A DNA stretch of 57,144 bases from Deltaproteobacteria bacterium (GTDB taxonomy: Bacteria > Desulfobacterota > WTBG01 > JAGOGO01), in contig JAFGRE010000031.1 of the NCBI GenBank assembly GCA_016935335.1, positions 1 to 57,144 of the forward strand, written 5' to 3'. How positions within the stretch are numbered: the stretch's first letter is position 1; every line of letters begins with the position of its first letter. The notes beneath the pieces were generated by a model that was not told where the DNA came from, did no database searches, and was given only the letters and a program-made list of their open reading frames with translations. The position numbers were made by a program, and so were the translations under genes. Shown here in pieces: positions 2,813 to 17,300 of the stretch.

Positions 2813-3913
2813 ATGGAACCAGATATTTACCGTGAACTCATGACGCACTTAGGGAAGGTCGGAATCGGATATCCTCAGATAGATGGGTTTTTGGATGTTT
2901 TGAAAAAAACCCTTACCGTGGAGGAGGCTGAAGTGGCGCTTGGCCTTCCTACACGGCTTCCGCCCCTTGAGGTTGAAGAAGTTGATAAAATAGCCCAGAG
3001 GCTTAAAAGGCCGATTGAAGAAGTTGAAAGAATTCTGGAGAACCTGGCGGAAAAAGGATTCCTGTATAAGCGACAGATGTCCTCCGGGAAGACCGGATAT
3101 GCATTTATCCAGATTGGTTTCGGTATTCCTCAGATTTTTTTCTGGAAACGTGAGGTCAGCGATATCGCGAAAGATATCGCACGGCCGTTAGGAAAGTATG
3201 TGGTGAAAGCAACCCCACAGAACCGGGGAACGGAAAAAGTCCGGTTTTATCGATATGTGCCGGTGAATAAAGCGATCGACCATACGTTGCAGGCGGTCTA
3301 TACTTATGACATGATGACCGAGGTAGTGAACAGGGCGCGCAAGATAGCCGTTGTCCATTGTCCCTGTCGACAGATAGGCAGGTTGTTGGCCAACCGGGAG
3401 TGTTCCCACAGTGTTGAAGTCTGCTTGAAATTTAATGAACTGGCGGAATTTGTGCTTGAGAAAGGGTTAGGCCGGGAGATAACCAAGGAGGAGGCTCTTG
3501 AGATTATTCGAAAATCCGAGGAGGAGGGATTGATTCACTTTGTGGATAATTGCCAGGAGGAGATTCAGAATTGCTGCAACTGTTGTTCCTGCTGTTGCTG
3601 GACGGTTATGCCCATCAAGAAAAGGCTGGTGCCTCGGGACTATATAATGGCGACTTACTATCTGCGGACCACCGATACAGATTTGTGTACCGGCTGCGGG
3701 CAATGCGCGGAAGACTGTCCGCTGGAAATAATCACGATGGAAGATGATCTGCCGGTCGTTGACGAAAGCATTTGCATCGGCTGTGGTGTGTGTTTGCTTC
3801 ATTGTCCCACCGATGCAGCGCAACTGAAGAAGAAAGATGATACGGAGCCGGCAAAGGATTTCCAGACGCTTCATCAGACTGCGATTCAGGAAGTCACCTC
3901 AAACGAAAAATAG
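2813..3913 (+). CDS. Cys-rich 4Fe-4S dicluster protein, copy 2 (tandem paralog)
   Basis: Colinear and highly similar to 1353..2465, with the same Cys motifs. GAGGAGGAGG RBS. Confidence 0.8.
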   Translation: MEPDIYRELMTHLGKVGIGYPQIDGFLDVLKKTLTVEEAEVALGLPTRLPPLEVEEVDKIAQRLKRPIEEVERILENLAEKGFLYKRQMSSGKTGYAFIQIGFGIPQIFFWKREVSDIAKDIARPLGKYVVKATPQNRGTEKVRFYRYVPVNKAIDHTLQAVYTYDMMTEVVNRARKIAVVHCPCRQIGRLLANRECSHSVEVCLKFNELAEFVLEKGLGREITKEEALEIIRKSEEEGLIHFVDNCQEEIQNCCNCCSCCCWTVMPIKKRLVPRDYIMATYYLRTTDTDLCTGCGQCAEDCPLEIITMEDDLPVVDESICIGCGVCLLHCPTDAAQLKKKDDTEPAKDFQTLHQTAIQEVTSNEK

Positions 3914-6285: not shown

Positions 6286-7866
6286 TTATTTGCCCCGTAA
6301 CAATTCCATGGCAGCCAGGTGGCCTGCCGAGGCATTCATACCGCATCCCGGCCAGGTTGATTGACCGGTGAGGTATAATCGTTTGACAGGTGTCTTATAG
6401 CGTGACCATCCGGGCACAGGTCTGAACAGGAAAAACTGATGCAAATGATGAGCCCCACCGACCATGTCACCTCCAACCAAATTGGGATCATCGTTCTCAA
6501 GATCCTGCGGTGTGTGGACGACTGCTTTTCTGATAATGTCCCTAATTTGAGGAGCATAGACCGAGATTTTATTAATGATTCGTTCATAGATCGGCTCCTT
6601 CATGGTGTCCCAGCTTCCGACCTTAATTTCATCCAATGCGTCACCTTTTATTTCCTGCGGAAATGCGCGCGCCTGAATCCACATGACGTGCTTTCCTTCC
6701 GGAGCCCTCTCCGGATCATGTATAGATTGCTGGGCCACTACCAGGAGAGGGTTGCTGGGGAGAAGGCCGTTCATGATCTGGCTGTAAGTGTTAGAGATAT
6801 CTGATACGTAGGGGGCGATATGGATATAGGCAGAATTGGTTAAGTCTTCAGCAGCTTCCCATTCCAAGGGTTTGTTCAAGGTAAGGTGGATCATCAGCGT
6901 TCCTGGGCCATACTGAAAATTTCTGCAACTGGTTACAAACTTTTCGGGAAGCTCCTTTTGGTCGACCAGTTCGATAAATTGGCGAGGAGTGACAGTGGCC
7001 AGCACTGCCTTTTTCGCATGATAAGTCTGTCCGTCCGCAGTTTTGACACCAACGGCAGCACCATTATGGGTTACGATTTCGGTCACCATGTTTCCATACA
7101 AAAGCCGGCCTCCTCCTTCTTCAATTACCTTGACCATAGCATGTATAAGGTTACCGACGCCGCCTTTGGAGATGGCAAGGCCATTAAGATGATCAGCCAC
7201 GGATTCAAGAAATGAAAAAGTTGCGCCACCAGCGCAGTCAGGACTTAACCCCAGGTGGAAGGCCCACGGAGATAAAAGAGCTTTGGCCTCTTCAGTCTGA
7301 AACCGTTCGTCAAAGAATTCTCGTGTCGGTGTCAATAAGACCTTGACGAGGTTTAGCGCATCGTTAAAGCCGAGCTGTCGATATATTTTCCAGAAGTGAA
7401 GGAGCATCTTCACCGAAGGGATGGGTAGCTGCAGGATGGGAAACATATACGGTGCGATTGTACTAAAATAGGCTACCATTTCGTTCCATGCCTGCCCGTC
7501 CCGCGATGCAAACCGTGCGAGTTCTTGGTACGCTTTCTCCGCGTCGGTATACATACGGATGCAGTTGCCGTTGGGAAAGACATTCGCAAATGGCTGGTTG
7601 ATCGCTACAATGTCGAATCCGCTTCGGCGAAATGCGTCTTGAAAATCAGCATACACGCGAGATCCCAAAAACTGGCCGATGTTGGTGGCATAGAGATCGT
7701 GCTTAAATCCGGGTTCAAGGAGTTCTGCCGTCTTAGATGCGCCTCCGGGGACCTCTGCCTTCTCGATAATAAGTACTTTGTGTCCGGCTTTTTGAATATA
7801 TAGGGCTGCAGTCAAGCTGTTATGTCCTGCACCGACAATGATCACATCCGCATCATAATCTGCCAT
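6286..7866 (-). CDS. NAD(P)/FAD-dependent oxidoreductase, phytoene dehydrogenase-like
   Basis: IVGAGHNSL Rossmann motif, GG..T.E..PGFKHD and YKTPVKRLYLTGQSTWPG. Confidence 0.85.
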   Translation of the reverse strand: MADYDADVIIVGAGHNSLTAALYIQKAGHKVLIIEKAEVPGGASKTAELLEPGFKHDLYATNIGQFLGSRVYADFQDAFRRSGFDIVAINQPFANVFPNGNCIRMYTDAEKAYQELARFASRDGQAWNEMVAYFSTIAPYMFPILQLPIPSVKMLLHFWKIYRQLGFNDALNLVKVLLTPTREFFDERFQTEEAKALLSPWAFHLGLSPDCAGGATFSFLESVADHLNGLAISKGGVGNLIHAMVKVIEEGGGRLLYGNMVTEIVTHNGAAVGVKTADGQTYHAKKAVLATVTPRQFIELVDQKELPEKFVTSCRNFQYGPGTLMIHLTLNKPLEWEAAEDLTNSAYIHIAPYVSDISNTYSQIMNGLLPSNPLLVVAQQSIHDPERAPEGKHVMWIQARAFPQEIKGDALDEIKVGSWDTMKEPIYERIINKISVYAPQIRDIIRKAVVHTPQDLENDDPNLVGGDMVGGAHHLHQFFLFRPVPGWSRYKTPVKRLYLTGQSTWPGCGMNASAGHLAAMELLRGK

Positions 7867-11081: not shown

Positions 11082-14000
11082 ATGCAATGCAATGAGAAGA
11101 CCAGCGAATCTTTAGAGCAAGAGGTGGTTCGTTTACAGAACCGCATTGCTGAATTGGAGGAGAAAGAAAAGTTTTATCAAATAGCGGAGAAACAATATCG
11201 AGACCTGGTGGAAAGCACCCTCGTAGGAATGTTCAAGACCACCCTTGCAGGAGATATCCTTTATGCCAATCAGGCGCTGGTGGAAATGTTCGGGTTTGAA
11301 TCTCCCGAGGAATTTGGAACCCAGCTGGTTTTTGCAAGATACAAGAGGGCTGAGGATAGAGAGGAATTTCTTGCGTTCATAAAAACCAAGGGTGTTGTAA
11401 ACAACTTTGAGGTTGAACTTATTACGAAAACTGGAAGGCCGAAGCCCGTGCTGATTAACGCGGTTCTTGCTGATAACATTATATCGGGGATGATGATAGA
11501 CATCACCGACCATAAGCGGGCAGAGGAGGCGCTTCGAAACAGTGAGGAAGAACTGCGACACATTGTTGAAGGGAGCCCGATACCGACATTCGTTATCGAT
11601 ACCGATCACATGGTCAAACACTGGAACAAGGCCTGTGAGAAGCTCACGGGTCTTTCTGCGGAGGAGATGGTGGAAACCAAGCAGCAGTGGAAAGCATTTT
11701 CTCCAACAGAGAGGTCGATGCTTGCTGACTTGATAGTGGATGGCCTTCCCGAGGAAGAGATAATAAAGCGTTCCGGGAGGGCGTATAGAAGATCCGCCAT
11801 TATTGACGGAGCTTATGAGGCTGAAGATTTTGTTCATGGTTTGGGGGAAAATGGTAGATGGGTTTCTTTCAGCGCAGCACCGCTTAAGGATGTTGCGGGT
11901 ACTATCACGGGAGCGATAGAGATCTTGCAGGATGTCACGGAGCGAAAACATGCGACAAAGGCGTTACAACACAGTGAACAGATGTTTAGAACTTTGGCGG
12001 AGACCGCCCCTTTTGGCATTTCAATTATGAATTCAGAACAGCGGTTTGAATATTTCAATCCGAAATTTACCGAAATATTCGGATATACATTCGAAGATGT
12101 TACGGATAATGCGACGTGGTTTAAGAAAGCATACCCCGACAAAGAATATCGAGAAAACGTGATTACCATCTGGAAGGAAGACCTGGGAGATGAACCGGAG
12201 GTGGGCGCAAAAAGGGAAAGGATTTATAACGTCAGATGTAAAGACGGAAGGGACAGGGTCATTCATTTTAGGGGAATCGCCTTAGAGGATGGAAGGCATT
12301 TTGTTACCTATGAAGATATTACAATTCGGGCACAAGCTGAAAGGGACCTTAAAGAAAGCGAACTGAAATATCGCGCCCTTTTTGAGTCGACGCCGGACGC
12401 AATTATGTTGACCGATAGCGGCGGCTTCCTAGATTGTAATAAGGCAACGCTTGAAATGTTCGGTTGTTCAGCGAAAGAGGAGTTCACCATAAAACACCCC
12501 GGCGAATTATCTCCCCCGATCCAGCCCGATGGGGAGGAGTCGATTTTTGCTGCCAACAAGCACATTAAGGAAGCTCTCGCAAAGGGATTCTGTTTTTTTG
12601 AGTGGGTGCATAGACGGATTGACGGGGGGGACTTCCCGGCTGAGGTATTGCTCAGTACGCTTGAATTAAGGGGGCGGATGGTTTTACAGGCGTTAGTTCG
12701 CGATATTACCGACCGGAAGCGAGCAGAAGAGGCCGTTAGAAGAGCTCAAGACGAACTCGAACAGCGGGTTAGGGAACGAACCGCGGAACTGACAGATGTT
12801 AATCAACGATTACAGCAGGAGGTTGAAGAACGAAAACGGGCTGAGATATCTCTTCAACAGAGTGAAGAAAGATACCGGTATATTTTTGATAATGCGTTGG
12901 TTTCACTTCGGGAGGAAGATATCTCCGAGCTTAGGTCTGCCCTTGACGAACTGCGGAGGAAAGGGGTGCGGAATTTTCGAGAGTACTTGGACGAACATCC
13001 GGAGTTTATAAGCCGGGCGATAAAAATGATAAAAATTACCGACACCAATGATGCTGCGATGAGATTATATGAAGCGGATGATAGAGGGCAATTCTCTGAG
13101 AGGGAAAAAATGTTTGTGCCGGGAGAACTTTCCGGGTTTCACGAATCGCTTATCGCTCTTGCAGAGGGGCAGACCTCGTTTGAAGGCGAATCGGTGAACC
13201 AGACGTTTCGGGGAAAGCCCATCAACATTTTGTTGAAGATCGCGTTTCCTTCTAAAAAATCACGATTCAACAAAGCGTTAGTGAGCGTAGTGGATATCAC
13301 TGAACGGAAGCGGGCAGAGGAAGCCTTGCAAGAGAGTGAAAATAGATTCTCAACCTTTATGGATCATTTGCCGGGGATTGTCTGCATGCGAGATGAAGCT
13401 GGGCGGGTTACATATCTTAATAGATACATGGGGGATACATTCGGAGAACAGGCAAGCACATTGGCGGAGAGGGTTACCGGGGAATGGTCCGATTTTTCAA
13501 GAGAAAACATACGGGAAAGTACTGAAGCTGTGTTCGATAAGAACGAGAAGTCTCACTTCTATCGGACGTTCAGGTTCCCGGTAGTGAGAAAAGGGAAGCC
13601 GACGATTTACGGAGGCATTGGGATTGACATAACGAAGCAAGTGGAGGCGGAAGAGGCGCTTCGGAAAGCGCATGGGGATTTAGAAGAAACAGTAAAGAGA
13701 CGCACAGCCGAATTGGTTACAATTAACGAGCAATTGAAACAGGAAGTCGTAGCGCACAAGCACACGGGCAAGGCGCTTGAAGAACAAACCTTGCTCAACG
13801 AAATGATTCTCCAGACTACCATGAACGGATTGTTTATTAAAGACCTGGACGGTAATATTTTAAAAGCAAATCCGGCGGCTTCTATGATTACCGGCTATAG
13901 GCAGGAAGAATTGATCAAGATGAACATCCTCGACATAGAACCGCTGGACTCATTAGCGGCCTTTAAGCAGCGCAGCCAGCTTGCTGTCGAAAAAGGGTTT

Positions 14001-14603
14001 AATCGTTTTGAAGCAAAATCGCGGCACAAGGATGACCACATCGCGGATGTAGAAGTGAGTCAGAATTTTCTAAAAATCGGGGAGCAGGAATTACTTATCT
14101 CTTTTTTCAATGATATCACGAAAAGAAAGCAGGCGGAGCGGGTACTTAAAGAGCGGGAAGAAGAACTGGAGGTAAAGAGCAGTAACCTTGAGGAAGTAAA
14201 TACTGCCTTGATGGTCTTATTGCGTAGGAGGGATGAAGACAAAAGAGAACTGGAGGATAAGGTCTTGGTAAATATGAAGGAATTGGCGCTACCGTATATT
14301 GAGAAGATAGGACAAGGCAATCTGGATGCCAGGCAAAGGTCTTATCTGGAAATCCTGGAATCAAACCTGGATGATATTATTTCACCTTTTGCGCGGACTT
14401 TGTCCTCTAAATACCTTAATCTTACACCTACGGAAATTCAGGTGGCCAATCTTATTAAACAAGGGAAAACCAGCAAGGAAATAGCGGAATTGTGGAATCT
14501 CTCCAGTAGGACGGTTGAATTCCATAGGGACAACATCCGGAGGAAACTCCAGATAAAAAATAGAAAGACAAACCTCAGATCCTACCTGCTCTCCCTGCAA
14601 TGA
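11082..14603 (+). CDS. Multi-PAS (about 7 PAS/PAC) LuxR-family HTH one-component regulator
   Basis: Repeated [12 protein letters not shown]-type PAC linkers. C-terminal [43 protein letters not shown] LuxR HTH. No kinase or receiver domain. Confidence 0.92.
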
Positions 14604-14604
14604 T

Positions 14605-14675
14605 AATACTGGTTTTAGGCAAGCATTATACAGGTAATTATTTGTGATTGATTTTTTGGGAAAAGCTGATATTTT
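14605..14675 (+). promoter_or_regulatory. Inverted repeat plus sigma70 promoter directly after the LuxR1 stop
   Basis: AATACT-N11-AGCATT (14605-14627), then 20 nt, then TTGATT (14648)-N16-TATTTT (14670) with extended TG. Aligns with 16276-16347. Confidence 0.6.
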
Positions 14676-14681
14676 AAAAAA

Positions 14682-14847
14682 AGCAGATGCGATTTTCGCG
14701 CTGCCTTCCTCTAACCTCTCTAACTCAGCATGGAGGGAAATGTAAAGCGACTATTTCGGACGTGAAAATTTCATAGGTCTTGCACTCTTTTTTACCTTCC
14801 TATATCATCTATATACTCCAACTAATGAAGAGTGCAAGACTTTTTTT
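14682..14847 (+). ncRNA. Candidate small RNA 1 with CU-rich large-loop terminator
   Basis: No credible ORF. 13-bp stem GTCTTGCACTCTT/AAGAGTGCAAGAC (14777-14840), 38-nt loop containing CCTTCC and TACTCCA, followed by T7. 5' end inferred from the promoter. Confidence 0.5.
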
Positions 14848-14999
14848 GTGTTGGCGTTGGGTGGTTGACTTCGCTTCCACCGAAATTGCTGAGCCAGGAA
14901 TCTCTCTCTTCGTCTTTTTAATTGTAGTAAGATAATACAAAGTTGGTATCGCGTAAGAATCCCAATCATTGACGTGACATATCTTTGGAGAAGAGCCTG

Positions 15000-16277
15000 A
15001 TGAATGACAAGAAGAAAACCAAGGGCCTTCTGGAGCAAGAATTGGCTAATCCCCGTGATCGGACTGCTCAGTTGGAGAAGTCCATCAAAGGGTATTGGCA
15101 ATCTGAGAAGCAGTTTAGGGATTTTGTTGAAAATGCTCCTGTGGGTATTTACAGAAGTAACTTCAAAGGCGACATCCTTTACGCAAATCGGGCGTTGATG
15201 GCTATGTTTGAATTCAATTCGCCGCAGGAACTTATTTCTCAGGGCGTCGTGGCGCGATACAAGAATCGAAAAGATCGGGAAAGGCTTATTCAGATTGTAA
15301 AGGAAAAGGGATCTGTTGATAATTTTGAAGTTGAAGTTCTAACCAAAATCGGAAAAACCAAATGCGCAATACTCAGCGCAGTGCCTGAGGGAGATATGAT
15401 ATGGGGAATGATGATTGACATTACCGAGCGGAAGCGGGCGGAGGATGCGCTGCAAGAGGAGACTTTGCGGAACGAATTGATTCTTAAAACCACTATGCAT
15501 GGGTTTTTTATAACGGATATGGAAGGAAAAATTCTTAAGGCAAACCCGACAGCGGCTTTGATTTCCGGTTATTTGCAGGATGAATTGATCGGAATGCATG
15601 TTCTTGATCTTGACCCGTTGTTGTCTCTGGAATCGTTTCAGGGGCACCGGAAGCTATCCATGAAAATCGGATGCCACCGGTTTGAAACGAAATGCCGTCG
15701 AAAAGATGGACGTATTATAGACGTGGAAGTCAGTCAAAACTTTCTCGAGATCGGACGGCAGAAGAGTTTCTTCTCTTTTTTTACGGACATTACACAACGA
15801 AAACAGGCTGAGAAGACATTGAGAGAGCGGGAAAAAGAACTCGAGGCAAAACGCAGCAGCCTCGAGGAAGTGAATGTTGCCCTAAAGGTGTTGCTGAAAA
15901 GAAGGGATGAGGATAAGGCTGACCTTGAGGAAAAGGTGATGGTAAATCTGAAGGAACTTATAGGACCCTACCTGCAGAAATTAAGGGAGAGTGGTTTGAA
16001 TGCGAAGCAGCGGGCCTATTTTGAGGTGCTGGAGTCCAATATTAACAGTATTATTTCCCCATTTGCACGCAGTTTAGGATCCAAATACTTGGGCCTTACC
16101 CCTAAAGAAATTTTGGTTGCCAATCTTATCAGGCAAGGAAAGACGGCGAAGGAGATAGCGGAGCTGTGGAACATTTCTCGGAGGACCGTTGAGTCTCACC
16201 GGGAAAATATGCGTCGGAAACTTCGCCTCAAGAAGCAGAAGAAGAACCTGCGGTCTTACCTTTTATCTCTAAAATAA
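15000..16277 (+). CDS. Two-PAS LuxR-family HTH regulator (paralog of 11082..14603)
   Basis: PAS1 and the last PAS plus HTH are similar to the upstream gene. [39 protein letters not shown] 15000 follows GGAG. Confidence 0.92.
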   Translation: MNDKKKTKGLLEQELANPRDRTAQLEKSIKGYWQSEKQFRDFVENAPVGIYRSNFKGDILYANRALMAMFEFNSPQELISQGVVARYKNRKDRERLIQIVKEKGSVDNFEVEVLTKIGKTKCAILSAVPEGDMIWGMMIDITERKRAEDALQEETLRNELILKTTMHGFFITDMEGKILKANPTAALISGYLQDELIGMHVLDLDPLLSLESFQGHRKLSMKIGCHRFETKCRRKDGRIIDVEVSQNFLEIGRQKSFFSFFTDITQRKQAEKTLREREKELEAKRSSLEEVNVALKVLLKRRDEDKADLEEKVMVNLKELIGPYLQKLRESGLNAKQRAYFEVLESNINSIISPFARSLGSKYLGLTPKEILVANLIRQGKTAKEIAELWNISRRTVESHRENMRRKLRLKKQKKNLRSYLLSLK

Positions 16278-16347
16278 TACGCAGTTTATATCCGTATTGT
16301 GCTAGAATTTATTTGGTATTGATATTTAAGAAAAAGAGATCTATACT
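16276..16347 (+). promoter_or_regulatory. Inverted repeat plus sigma70 promoter directly after the LuxR2 stop
   Basis: AATACG-N11-CGTATT (16276-16298), then 20 nt, then TTGATA (16319)-N17-TATACT (16342). Confidence 0.7.
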
Positions 16348-16353
16348 ATTAAT

Positions 16354-16439
16354 AAATAGTTGACGCATTTAAGCCTTACACTCGTTTTCAATTCTCTTCT
16401 CCTCCATTTACTCCATTAAACGGGTGTAAGGCTTTTTTT
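16354..16439 (+). ncRNA. Candidate small RNA 2 with CU-rich large-loop terminator
   Basis: 17-bp stem AAGCCTTACACTCGTTT/AAACGGGTGTAAGGCTT (16371-16434, one G-U), 30-nt loop with CTCCTCC and TACTCCA, then a T7 run. The next gene is convergent, so no same-strand ORF explains the promoter. Confidence 0.55.
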
Positions 16440-16445
16440 ATGATT

Positions 16446-16488
16446 AAAAAGCCTCTTAACCATCTGCCCCTGGGAAAGGGGCTTTTTT
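16446..16488. terminator. Second hairpin, possibly a bidirectional terminator
   Basis: AAAAAGCCTCTT...AAGGGGCTTTTTT with A-run before and T-run after, between convergent units. Confidence 0.55.
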
Positions 16489-16567
16489 CATTGAGGGCGG
16501 AAAGGGATCTCCGGGAAAGGTTGGTAACCGCCTTCTTGCTGGGGAGAATTCTTAAATGAAATGATCC

Positions 16568-17197
16568 TCACTGTTTTGTTCTTTTATAATCCTGGAGATA
16601 CCGCAATACTTTTTTAATATAAACATGGGTTTCTCTATAGGGGGGGATTTGGCAGCCATGTTCCTTTACGATGTTTTCTCCGGCATTATAGGCGGCAAGC
16701 GTTAATGGTAAGTCGTTATCGAACATGTTAAGAAGCCGTCGTAAATATTTGACTCCCCCTTCGATATTTTCTCGGGGGTCAAAGACGTTTTTTACGTTCA
16801 TATCTAGTGCGGTTTCTGGCATAAGCTGCATTAAGCCCCTGGCCCCCCGATGAGAGACTACGGATGGGTCGAAGTCTGATTCTGCCTTGATAACTGCTCG
16901 TATCAAATCTTCATCAACTTTATATCTGGTTGACATTTCCCGGATTACGTCCTTGTATCGGGCATACTCGTGGTTTTTGTTCCGCCCCCCCCCGGAAATG
17001 TAAAGGCGATATCGGGGGTCAGTGGGAACATTTGAAAAGTGAACCACCCCGTTTTTATCGACAAATCGGTAGATGTCAGCCAGCACGAACTGGCAATTAA
17101 AGCTTGCCAACAAAAAGAAAAAAATTCCCGCCCACGGTACATGCGTTTTACGCGACAGGGGAGCGGCCTTTTTGCTAGAGTAAATGGCGGAGGCCAT
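16568..17197 (-). CDS. Lytic transglycosylase (SLT domain) with N-terminal DUF4124-like region
   Basis: ADIYRFVDKNGVVHFSN, IKAESDF, GARGLMQLMP and LAAYNAG. Start uncertain (17197 or 17245). Confidence 0.9.
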   Translation of the reverse strand: MASAIYSSKKAAPLSRKTHVPWAGIFFFLLASFNCQFVLADIYRFVDKNGVVHFSNVPTDPRYRLYISGGGRNKNHEYARYKDVIREMSTRYKVDEDLIRAVIKAESDFDPSVVSHRGARGLMQLMPETALDMNVKNVFDPRENIEGGVKYLRRLLNMFDNDLPLTLAAYNAGENIVKEHGCQIPPYRETHVYIKKVLRYLQDYKRTKQ

Positions 17198-17300
17198 CTC
17201 TTTTCCTTTTAGCAAGCACCCTTGACAGACGGACGTAAAATTCATAGGATGGAGTCAGACCGCTCGTGCGGATCACCCAATTGAAGGTTTCATGCATTAC

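Follow-up and report, generated by a model that had tools for sequence, protein, structure and literature searches.

Overview

Two genes for PAS-LuxR regulators lie in tandem in the stretch of DNA analyzed here (the window, a contig of 57,144 nucleotides (nt), C228 in a deltaproteobacterial assembly, G000, of 2.8 Mb in 246 contigs that is 91.5% complete), and the stop codon of each is followed by an inverted repeat, a promoter sequence, and a hairpin with an oversized loop. On balance, comparison with related genomes suggests that the two units are sensor cassettes in which the regulators activate sibling small RNAs (sRNAs) of anti-Shine-Dalgarno (anti-SD) type. In the proposed chain, a cytoplasmic one-component PAS-LuxR regulator would bind predicted sites just past its own stop codon, the AATAC-N13-GYATT inverted repeat together with another half-site that covers the -35 hexamer, and would thereby activate transcription from a sigma-70-type promoter lying 20 nt beyond the repeat. 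The transcript would be a short, terminated non-coding RNA (about 165 nt in cassette 1 and about 85 nt in cassette 2). Its unpaired, pyrimidine-rich loop with an anti-SD-like core would pair with the purine-rich ribosome-binding sites (RBSs) of target mRNAs, most likely lowering their translation.

The initial annotation of this DNA had proposed that each PAS sensor activates an adjacent sRNA, an interpretation that is largely upheld, although the system has a narrower scope and a more modular build than was suggested. Very little is known of how uncultured sediment bacteria control their genes after transcription; the window adds an sRNA family with clear comparative support that Rfam 15 lacks and that can be searched for by covariance model, a defined operator for a large and expanded family of PAS-LuxR one-component sensors, and a natural case in which a sensor-sRNA cassette appears to have duplicated in tandem. 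Coordinates of all features in the window are collected in Table 1.

A conserved family of hairpin RNAs

Among 48 long-stem, T6-tailed hairpins of the genome, eight have loops of at least 35 nt by the measure of the script used, and a large-loop hairpin on contig C143, with the same stem as copy 2 in the window, led to the family described here. Members were searched for with a stem pattern and then with a covariance model (R1). The genome has five copies (two in the window and one each on contigs C143, C15, and C109), and all seven other genomes of the taxonomic family (f1) have copies as well, two of them in tandem in genome G003. Forward-strand R1 scores are 62-79 bits for the copies of the genome itself and 37.5-74 bits in the seven relatives, with 22-37 bits on the reverse strand. 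Matches outside f1 are short and weak. Two coding-region look-alikes from the stem pattern search (L178 and L180) were dropped by eye.

A second model (R2), made from 12 copies outside the window, was run on the whole window without filters. It gave 51.6 bits (E = 8e-13) for copy 2 and 33.9 bits (E = 1.6e-7, positions 14770-14850) for copy 1, and these were the only plus-strand matches below E = 1e-3 in 57 kb. The four remaining matches with E no higher than 1 fell on the opposite strands of these hairpins (E = 2.6e-7 and 0.0046) and, on either strand, on the neighboring terminator at 16441-16492 (E = 0.076 and 0.32). By these model scores, both window hairpins belong to one conserved RNA family.

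The family architecture is a 14-bp stem of AAGCCTTRCACTCG type with its complement in register, which both window copies have. The stems had been described as differing in sequence; they are instead homologous and differ by compensatory changes, copy 1 departing from the consensus by three compensatory pairs. Selection on the structure had also been suggested, and here the comparison agrees. In the alignment of 12 sequences, 97% of stem cells are paired and 7 of the 14 pairs have changes on both sides; slid registers fall to 22-55% paired, and none of 500 shuffles reaches the observed covariation, a figure that overstates the significance because the sequences are related and few. Over 14 members the stem cells comprise 176 Watson-Crick pairs, 15 G.U pairs as read on the forward strand, and 1 A.C or C.A. 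A wobble bias of 15:1 is hard to explain other than by selection on a forward-strand RNA, and the hairpins are likely to be parts of selected RNAs.

The loops of the 14 members are 24-40 nt long and contain 42% U, 38% C, 17% A, and 3% G. By eye, the loop core contains CCUCC, or differs from it by one base, in 12 of the 14. CCUCC is the core of the anti-SD sequence. A T-rich tail follows the stem in 13 members. The heptamer TACTCCA, earlier put forward as a conserved seed, is indeed present in both window loops, but only copies 1 and 2 share it; the element common to the family is the CUCCUCC-type anti-SD core, which the loop of copy 2 has as CUCUUCUCCUCC. The stem and U7 tail of a canonical terminator are present in both window hairpins, with loops of 30 and 38 nt instead of 3-8 nt, and a terminator scan that allowed loops of 3-8 nt called neither.

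In addition to the shared hairpin, candidate sRNA 1 has a 5' hairpin that pairs CCUUCCUC with GGAGGGAA (folding z-score -3.4); two small inner helices are predicted within the 38-nt loop of its family hairpin. The leader of candidate sRNA 2 carries AATAGTTGA, and this leader and the -10 region resemble those of copies in a related genus (g2), with ATTAAT followed by AGTTGA (by eye). On reading the sequence, a credible open reading frame (ORF) is absent between the -10 box and the hairpin in both cassettes. DNA contigs of relatives cover 14685-14849 with 7 other letters in 165, and 16371-16485 with 7 other letters and one gap. The loops do not seem to encode a micro-ORF on the reverse strand, the members having no consistent frame (by eye).

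The initial annotation recognized no named RNA family in the hairpins, and Rfam 15 (4,227 models) bears this out, with no match at gathering score in the whole window. A permissive Rfam scan of 14500-16700 gave chance-level matches (E of at least 1), and across 11 loci holding family members and the RNAs of the two further loci described below (L092 and L031) Rfam gave only a tRNA. Literature searches on PAS-LuxR with small RNA listed only an unrelated general Streptomyces review; those on PAS/LuxR in Desulfobulbaceae listed Streptomyces and quorum-sensing work and nothing on this circuit; and those on anti-SD sibling sRNAs and Desulfobacterota sRNAs found only analogues of the LhrC and terminator-loop types. 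Judged by Rfam 15 and these searches, the sRNA family and the operator are new.

Some copies elsewhere have settings of their own. The copy at C109 14694-14750 has a small Cys-rich PilZ-like ORF on one side and, about 160 nt further on, a histidyl-tRNA synthetase-like gene on the other (both named by eye). A shared TGCAYGRTTCTTGCA is found at C143 (about 3690-3706) and C15 (minus strand, about 7420-7440), 36-44 nt upstream of the hairpin; the motif is similar to a sigma-54 -24/-12 element except that TG replaces the -24 GG, and these two copies may answer to another regulator. The tandem members of G003 (locus L198, contig C118) are at 1501-1575 and 1887-1956, about 390 nt apart, and TTGACT-17-TATTCA, which looks like a promoter, precedes the first of them by about 110 nt. 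Long-stem, T-tailed hairpins with large loops containing CCCTCCTC occur on the minus strand near C15 3679 and C79 2486; they fall outside the family model.

The operator-promoter unit

Direct reading and folding confirm that the same order of inverted repeat, 20-nt gap, -35 box, -10 box, and hairpin stands 3' of both LuxR genes, as first described. The stop codons are TGA at 14601-14603 and TAA at 16275-16277, and the distance from repeat to -35 is exactly 20 nt in both cassettes. At promoter 2, GGTATTG forms a third half-site overlapping the -35 hexamer; at promoter 1, GTGATTG across the -35 is a weak third half-site, and the spacer has TG at 14667-14668 (an extended -10). Promoter 1 aligns with the promoters of copy 2, of L031, and of a third instance, which the initial annotation had not seen: the gene of a third PAS-LuxR paralog, on contig C154, is followed by AATACG-N11-CGCATT, 20 nt, and TTGATT-17-TTAATA. 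The pattern AATAC-N13-G[CT]ATT-N18-22-TTGAT has three matches in the 2.8-Mb assembly (both strands), all 3' of these three paralogs, which places the module beyond chance.

The earlier proposal called for a check of conservation downstream of homologous regulators, and the unit recurs there. ATAC-N13-GTAT (with at most one mismatch) lies within about 6 nt of the stop codon in 13 of 74 distinct regions downstream of homologs, and a search of the 42 genomes in the class gave 33 matches to the operator pattern, versus 6 to a reversed control. Eighteen sites were accepted by eye (16 of 30 fetched matches, copy 2, and L031), the 14 fetched matches that were dropped being in coding sequence or without a third half-site. 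The consensus of the 18 is AATAC-N13-cGTATT-N16-gGTA|TTGnat, with the third half-site over the -35. A gene with a LuxR HTH (helix-turn-helix) ends no more than 400 nt upstream at 12 of them. The PAS-LuxR family is large and expanded, with up to 11 matches in a single genome. In a collection of genome contigs apparently without known carriers, the three-half-site motif gave 66 stretches from unrelated taxa, with about 70 expected by chance (an estimate).

The hexamers are 16 nt apart in copy 1 and 17 nt apart in copy 2 and L092, within the 16-18 nt of sigma-70 promoters, and the half-site over the -35 gives a class II-type layout; the promoters of L092 and of the g2 copies score 9/12 on the hexamers. 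Activator-dependent promoters of the NarL/FixJ type usually have their site upstream of and over the -35, and an imperfect -35 hexamer. By analogy, the layout here is the one expected for a local activator of that type. The operator-to-promoter spacing is retained while the paralogs of the genome are only 54-63% identical. The repeat, fixed spacing, and promoter are thus supported, from sequence comparison, as a conserved operator-promoter unit of this regulator family, which is very likely functional. With the operator at the regulator's own stop codon, the target of a regulator becomes predictable from sequence alone.

By eye, other regulator subfamilies have other repeats right after the stop codon (L007, L011, L036, L056, L062, and L066), among them a GGGTA...TACCC type and a GTATT-N3-AATAC type. 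Regulators of this family may thus commonly have a site at the end of their own gene.

The PAS-LuxR regulators

Above the Pfam cut-offs, both regulators contain only PAS-type families (PAS, PAS_9, PAS_4, and similar) and GerE (PF00196). Regulator 1 has several PAS domains, a predicted helical linker, and a C-terminal GerE HTH of 56.0 bits (gathering cut-off 23.5); regulator 2 has PAS, PAS_9, and GerE at 48.6 bits (cut-off 23.5). In each, PAS is N-terminal to the LuxR HTH and there is no receiver or autoinducer domain, as in PAS-LuxR one-component regulators; response-regulator models match the HTH part alone and are far under cut-off. The best relatives of the HTH in PDB by sequence are EsrB (7vim) and SsrB (2jpc).

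Over the C-terminal 260 amino acids (aa), regulators 1 and 2 are 63% identical, and the last 260 aa of the C154 paralog are 54-59% identical to theirs. Full-length matches outside the genome reach at most 46% identity, which makes regulators 1 and 2 the closest relatives of one another. Of 41 genomes searched, 28 encode homologs of the C-terminal 260 aa, often many per genome, and a metagenome search with regulator 2 gave five loci, all distant (30-45% identity), including L031.

Recurrence and origin of the cassettes

Two loci outside the genome pair the same operator with an RNA of another architecture. At L092, in genome G003 of family f1, the gene of a homologous regulator precedes the same operator, then TTGACT-17-AATACT and a predicted RNA of 110 nt with single-stranded CUCCUCC, two hairpins, and U8 (z-score -6.4), beyond which lies a convergent ORF. 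At L031, on a metagenome contig, a regulator with an HTH region 71% identical to that of regulator 2 precedes the operator-promoter and a predicted 81-nt RNA with CCUCC stretches and a terminator (z-score -4.0). Since these RNAs differ in architecture from the family, the link between operator and anti-SD RNA would not be just one inherited locus.

Conversely, the sRNA gene occurs apart from the regulator. The C143 copy sits past the terminator of its upstream gene, and the C15 copy has a divergent neighbor. Four copies in genus g2 keep a promoter-like TTGACT-16-TAAATT about 25-30 nt upstream of the hairpin, with neither a PAS-LuxR gene nor an AATAC repeat upstream, and most family members in related genomes are likewise without such a regulator. 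From the g2 copies, the sRNA gene and its core promoter look older than their coupling to PAS-LuxR in this genome. Because regulators 1 and 2 are closest relatives and TACTCCA is found in their two loops alone, the whole regulator-operator-promoter-sRNA cassette was most likely duplicated in tandem. The window would thus represent a local wiring of two older parts, followed by tandem duplication.

Protein genes behind the same operator

The proposal that PAS-LuxR regulators with adjacent sRNAs form a general system did not hold: most homologous regulators with the site drive protein genes, Ycf48-like and DUF169-like among them. Downstream of the third paralog, the target at C154 6330-7436 is a 368-aa Ycf48-like protein (PSII_BNR by Pfam) with a signal peptide. 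Ycf48/BNR-like secreted proteins were recognized by eye downstream of the sites at L079, L080, L098, and L099 (for the L099 target, Pfam gave Lcl_C only), and further downstream units, also by eye, are DUF169-like proteins, a carboxylase, and other secreted proteins.

The gene after the C154 Ycf48-like gene has an N-terminus like that of a membrane-transporter-like target in L048 (by eye). At L003, L008, L009, and L079, leaders of about 200 nt precede Ycf48/BNR-like targets behind the same type of operator-promoter, and they keep, about 60-70 nt into the predicted transcript, a GAAAGGAGG-like box that is distant from the actual start codon. A TTG frame of 36-39 codons begins at this box in L003 and L008.

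Alternative explanations

Several observations weigh against sensor cassettes that activate anti-SD sRNAs. At most accepted operator sites the downstream unit is a protein gene, not an sRNA, and because most such regulators drive protein genes, a promoter stranded by the loss of its target gene is conceivable at any single locus. The promoters had been proposed for both cassettes; promoter 2 scores 10/12, but promoter 1 has 8/12 by our own count of its hexamers and was not called by the consensus promoter scan. Copy 1 is the most diverged family member, its loop being CU-rich (CCUUCCU, ACUCCA) without CCUCC, and the copy in G002 has no U tail. At L031, a 105-codon frame that starts at the predicted RNA, without a Shine-Dalgarno (SD) sequence, runs through the terminator. 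Among the RNA runs listed none covers the locus (14400-16600), and two metatranscriptome runs that were compared with it covered only about 15412-15463, a conserved coding stretch of about 40 nt, with contigs unlike the window beyond it. The three operators of the genome are nearly identical, so the paralogs could cross-regulate, and the assignment of each regulator to its own site is to that extent provisional. A crude genome-wide target scan found no specific target, its top matches being G-rich and heterogeneous with many doubtful ORFs, and Hfq (PF17209) was not found in the 91.5%-complete assembly.

The hairpins might be unusual, conserved intrinsic terminators of the regulator genes, with promoters that are relics or idle and no regulatory RNA at all. 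Both do stand 3' of co-oriented genes and have U tails, and the operator-promoters of homologs usually drive protein genes, so that a target may have been lost. A terminator, however, has no need of the conserved and strand-specific loop content (3% G and a CUCCUCC core across 14 members in 8 genomes); a promoter is conserved in genus g2, some copies stand alone behind another terminator or beside a divergent gene, and both cassettes have kept operator, spacing, and -35/-10 despite proteins at 63% identity. This explanation is considered unlikely. For copy 1 there is the further possibility that its transcript, started at 14682 by regulator 1, is mainly a terminated leader (attenuator) of regulator 2, whose level would be set by regulated read-through of 14775-14847; such a cis cascade could coexist with a role in trans. 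Regulator 2 begins 150 nt past the terminator on the same strand, no convincing separate promoter was found in 14850-14999 by eye or promoter scan, and AATAC-N6-GGTAT at 14934-14949 suggests further LuxR-type input. Yet the 16-bp stem and its T7 tail make a strong terminator, hairpins of this family are also present at unrelated loci, and no gene in the same orientation lies downstream of copy 2, of L092, or, probably, of L031. As had been noted at the outset, copy 2 faces a convergent gene, which encodes an SLT domain protein, and this gene rules out a downstream mRNA for promoter 2. A leader as the main role of copy 1 seems improbable.

Repeated DNA of the repetitive extragenic palindrome (REP) or miniature inverted-repeat transposable element (MITE) kind, or an RNA decoy for a protein, would account for a stem conserved in sequence as well as in pairing and for several copies per genome. 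As an alternative to a base-pairing sRNA this is very unlikely, given that copies number only 1-5 per genome, that G.U wobbles at 15:1 on one strand point to selection on RNA, and that no flanking direct repeats or transposase genes were seen by eye in the stretches read, where no formal search was made; on sequence, a decoy role is still conceivable. It is similarly very unlikely that the inverted repeat serves repression or autoregulation, or binds another regulator, instead of being the site of the upstream PAS-LuxR protein as an activator. At six of the 18 sites no LuxR gene lies in the preceding 400 nt, and the near identity of the operators in the genome fits such a reading too, but the other 12 directly follow a LuxR HTH gene, and a site upstream of and over an imperfect -35 is the usual layout for an activator. 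Activation of anti-SD sRNAs by the adjacent regulators is the best reading, as a whole chain somewhat more probable than not.

Possible targets and wider role

The target scan paired six segments, from loops or 5' parts, with some 2,830 roughly defined start regions and computed the duplex energies. Target ranks correlate between loops (r = 0.44-0.78), as expected for generic anti-SD sequences. The 3' end of 16S rRNA was not found in the assembly, so the anti-SD sequence of the organism itself could not be read. The SD region of regulator 2 at 14983-14991 (GGAGAAGAG) is a perfect 9-nt complement of the copy 2 loop at 16394-16402 (CUCUUCUCC); matches of at least 9 nt occur in 30 of 2,833 crude start regions (the top 1%), and this one was noticed post hoc. 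The sRNA of copy 2 could, on this match, feed back on regulator 2.

A more speculative picture, held with low confidence, is a lineage-wide translation throttle in which sibling sRNAs imitate the ribosomal anti-SD sequence and each copy is under a different sensor. Its inputs would be PAS-LuxR in the window and other promoters at C143, C15, C109, and the g2-type copies; cassettes would duplicate and diverge as units, and an sRNA might feed back on its own regulator.

Comparison with known regulatory systems

Regulators that activate anti-SD sibling sRNAs are already known from Listeria, streptococci, and vibrios, and because this circuit type is well known, the value of the window lies in new parts and a new lineage, not in a new principle. 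The csRNAs of streptococci (CiaRH) and the Qrr RNAs (LuxO) are RBS-complementary siblings with a dedicated regulator site before each copy, and one Qrr gene adjoins luxO. Their regulators are of other families (OmpR-type and sigma-54 activators) and their RNA architecture is unlike that of the window family, homology having been compared through the Rfam scans alone.

In the available excerpt of its description, the LhrC1-5 set of Listeria monocytogenes consists of sibling sRNAs activated by the response regulator LisR, which pair with SD regions through single-stranded CU-rich stretches, the terminator loop being one of these (PMC5880928). The window family shares with it several homologous copies per genome, a CU-rich terminator loop, and a DNA-binding regulator from a sensory system, but has one oversized loop where that excerpt describes three short CU-rich sites (PMC5880928). 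No sequence relation to LhrC, insofar as that family is among the Rfam 15 models, was found at gathering scores on the window and 11 loci. In contrast to LhrC, the proposed regulator here is a one-component protein of PAS-LuxR type whose gene lies directly upstream and carries the predicted site at its stop codon, and promoters differ among copies. The terminator loops of the Escherichia coli sRNAs SdsR, RseX, and ArrS are active in fepA regulation, so there too the active part is the loop of an intrinsic terminator; the excerpt consulted describes them as acting "likely without base-pairing" and in dependence on Hfq and RNase E (PMC11979758), while pairing is proposed here and Hfq was not found.

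The GerE-type HTH of the window regulators is like the C-terminal domains of the NarL/FixJ family, in which half-sites starting with TAC and arranged as inverted repeats are typical. PAS stands in place of the receiver, however, and the spacing is TAC-N15-GTA versus 7-2-7 for NarL. PimM and PteF of Streptomyces likewise have an N-terminal PAS and a C-terminal LuxR HTH and, in the excerpts available on them, are pathway-local activators that control polyene and other biosynthetic clusters, whereas the predicted targets here are sRNAs or envelope-protein genes. With a number of PAS domains that ranges from 2 to 6 or more, and with a helical linker that is predicted to be long, the regulators of the present family are unlike PimM and PteF as those excerpts present them, and the likeness considered here is one of domains. 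The operator AATAC-N13-GTATT is a different motif from that of PimM.

Features of the window

Table 1. Positions of the regulator genes, regulatory sites, candidate RNAs, and neighboring features in the window.
Feature	Position	Strand	Details
PAS-LuxR regulator 1	11082..14603	+	1173 aa; ORF and Pfam
Operator 1, AATACT-N11-AGCATT	14605..14627	+	2 nt past stop codon; fits 18-site consensus
Promoter 1	14648..14675	+	TTGATT 14648-14653, 16-nt spacer, TATTTT 14670-14675; by eye
Candidate sRNA 1	14682..14847	+	about 165 nt; start predicted from -10 box
Family hairpin, copy 1	14775..14842	+	16-bp stem, 38-nt CU-rich loop; z-score -6.9; T7 at 14841-14847
PAS-LuxR regulator 2	15000..16277	+	425 aa from ATG 15000; ORF open from TTG 14985; ORF and Pfam
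Operator 2, AATACG-N11-CGTATT	16276..16298	+	perfect inverted repeat; begins inside regulator 2 stop codon; fits 18-site consensus
Promoter 2	16319..16347	+	TTGATA 16319-16324, 17-nt spacer, TATACT 16342-16347; promoter scan 10/12
Candidate sRNA 2	16354..16439	+	about 85 nt; predicted start
Family hairpin, copy 2	16371..16434	+	17-bp stem, 30-nt loop with CUCUUCUCCUCC; z-score -5.8; T7 at 16433-16439
Second, ordinary terminator hairpin	16446..16488	.	between sRNA 2 and convergent gene; T runs on both strands; scan and fold
Convergent gene, SLT lytic transglycosylase domain	16568..17245	-	ORF and Pfam

The compact AATAC-N6-GGTAT repeat between the cassettes is about 50 nt upstream of the start of regulator 2 and combines the operator half-sites at another spacing; it could be an autoregulatory site. 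Within regulator 2, the stretch 15417-15453 (the ITERKRAE region, at a PAS-domain junction) is matched by many foreign metagenome and metatranscriptome contigs, to a depth of up to 278. This coverage is that of a widely conserved linker motif and is no sign of expression of regulator 2.

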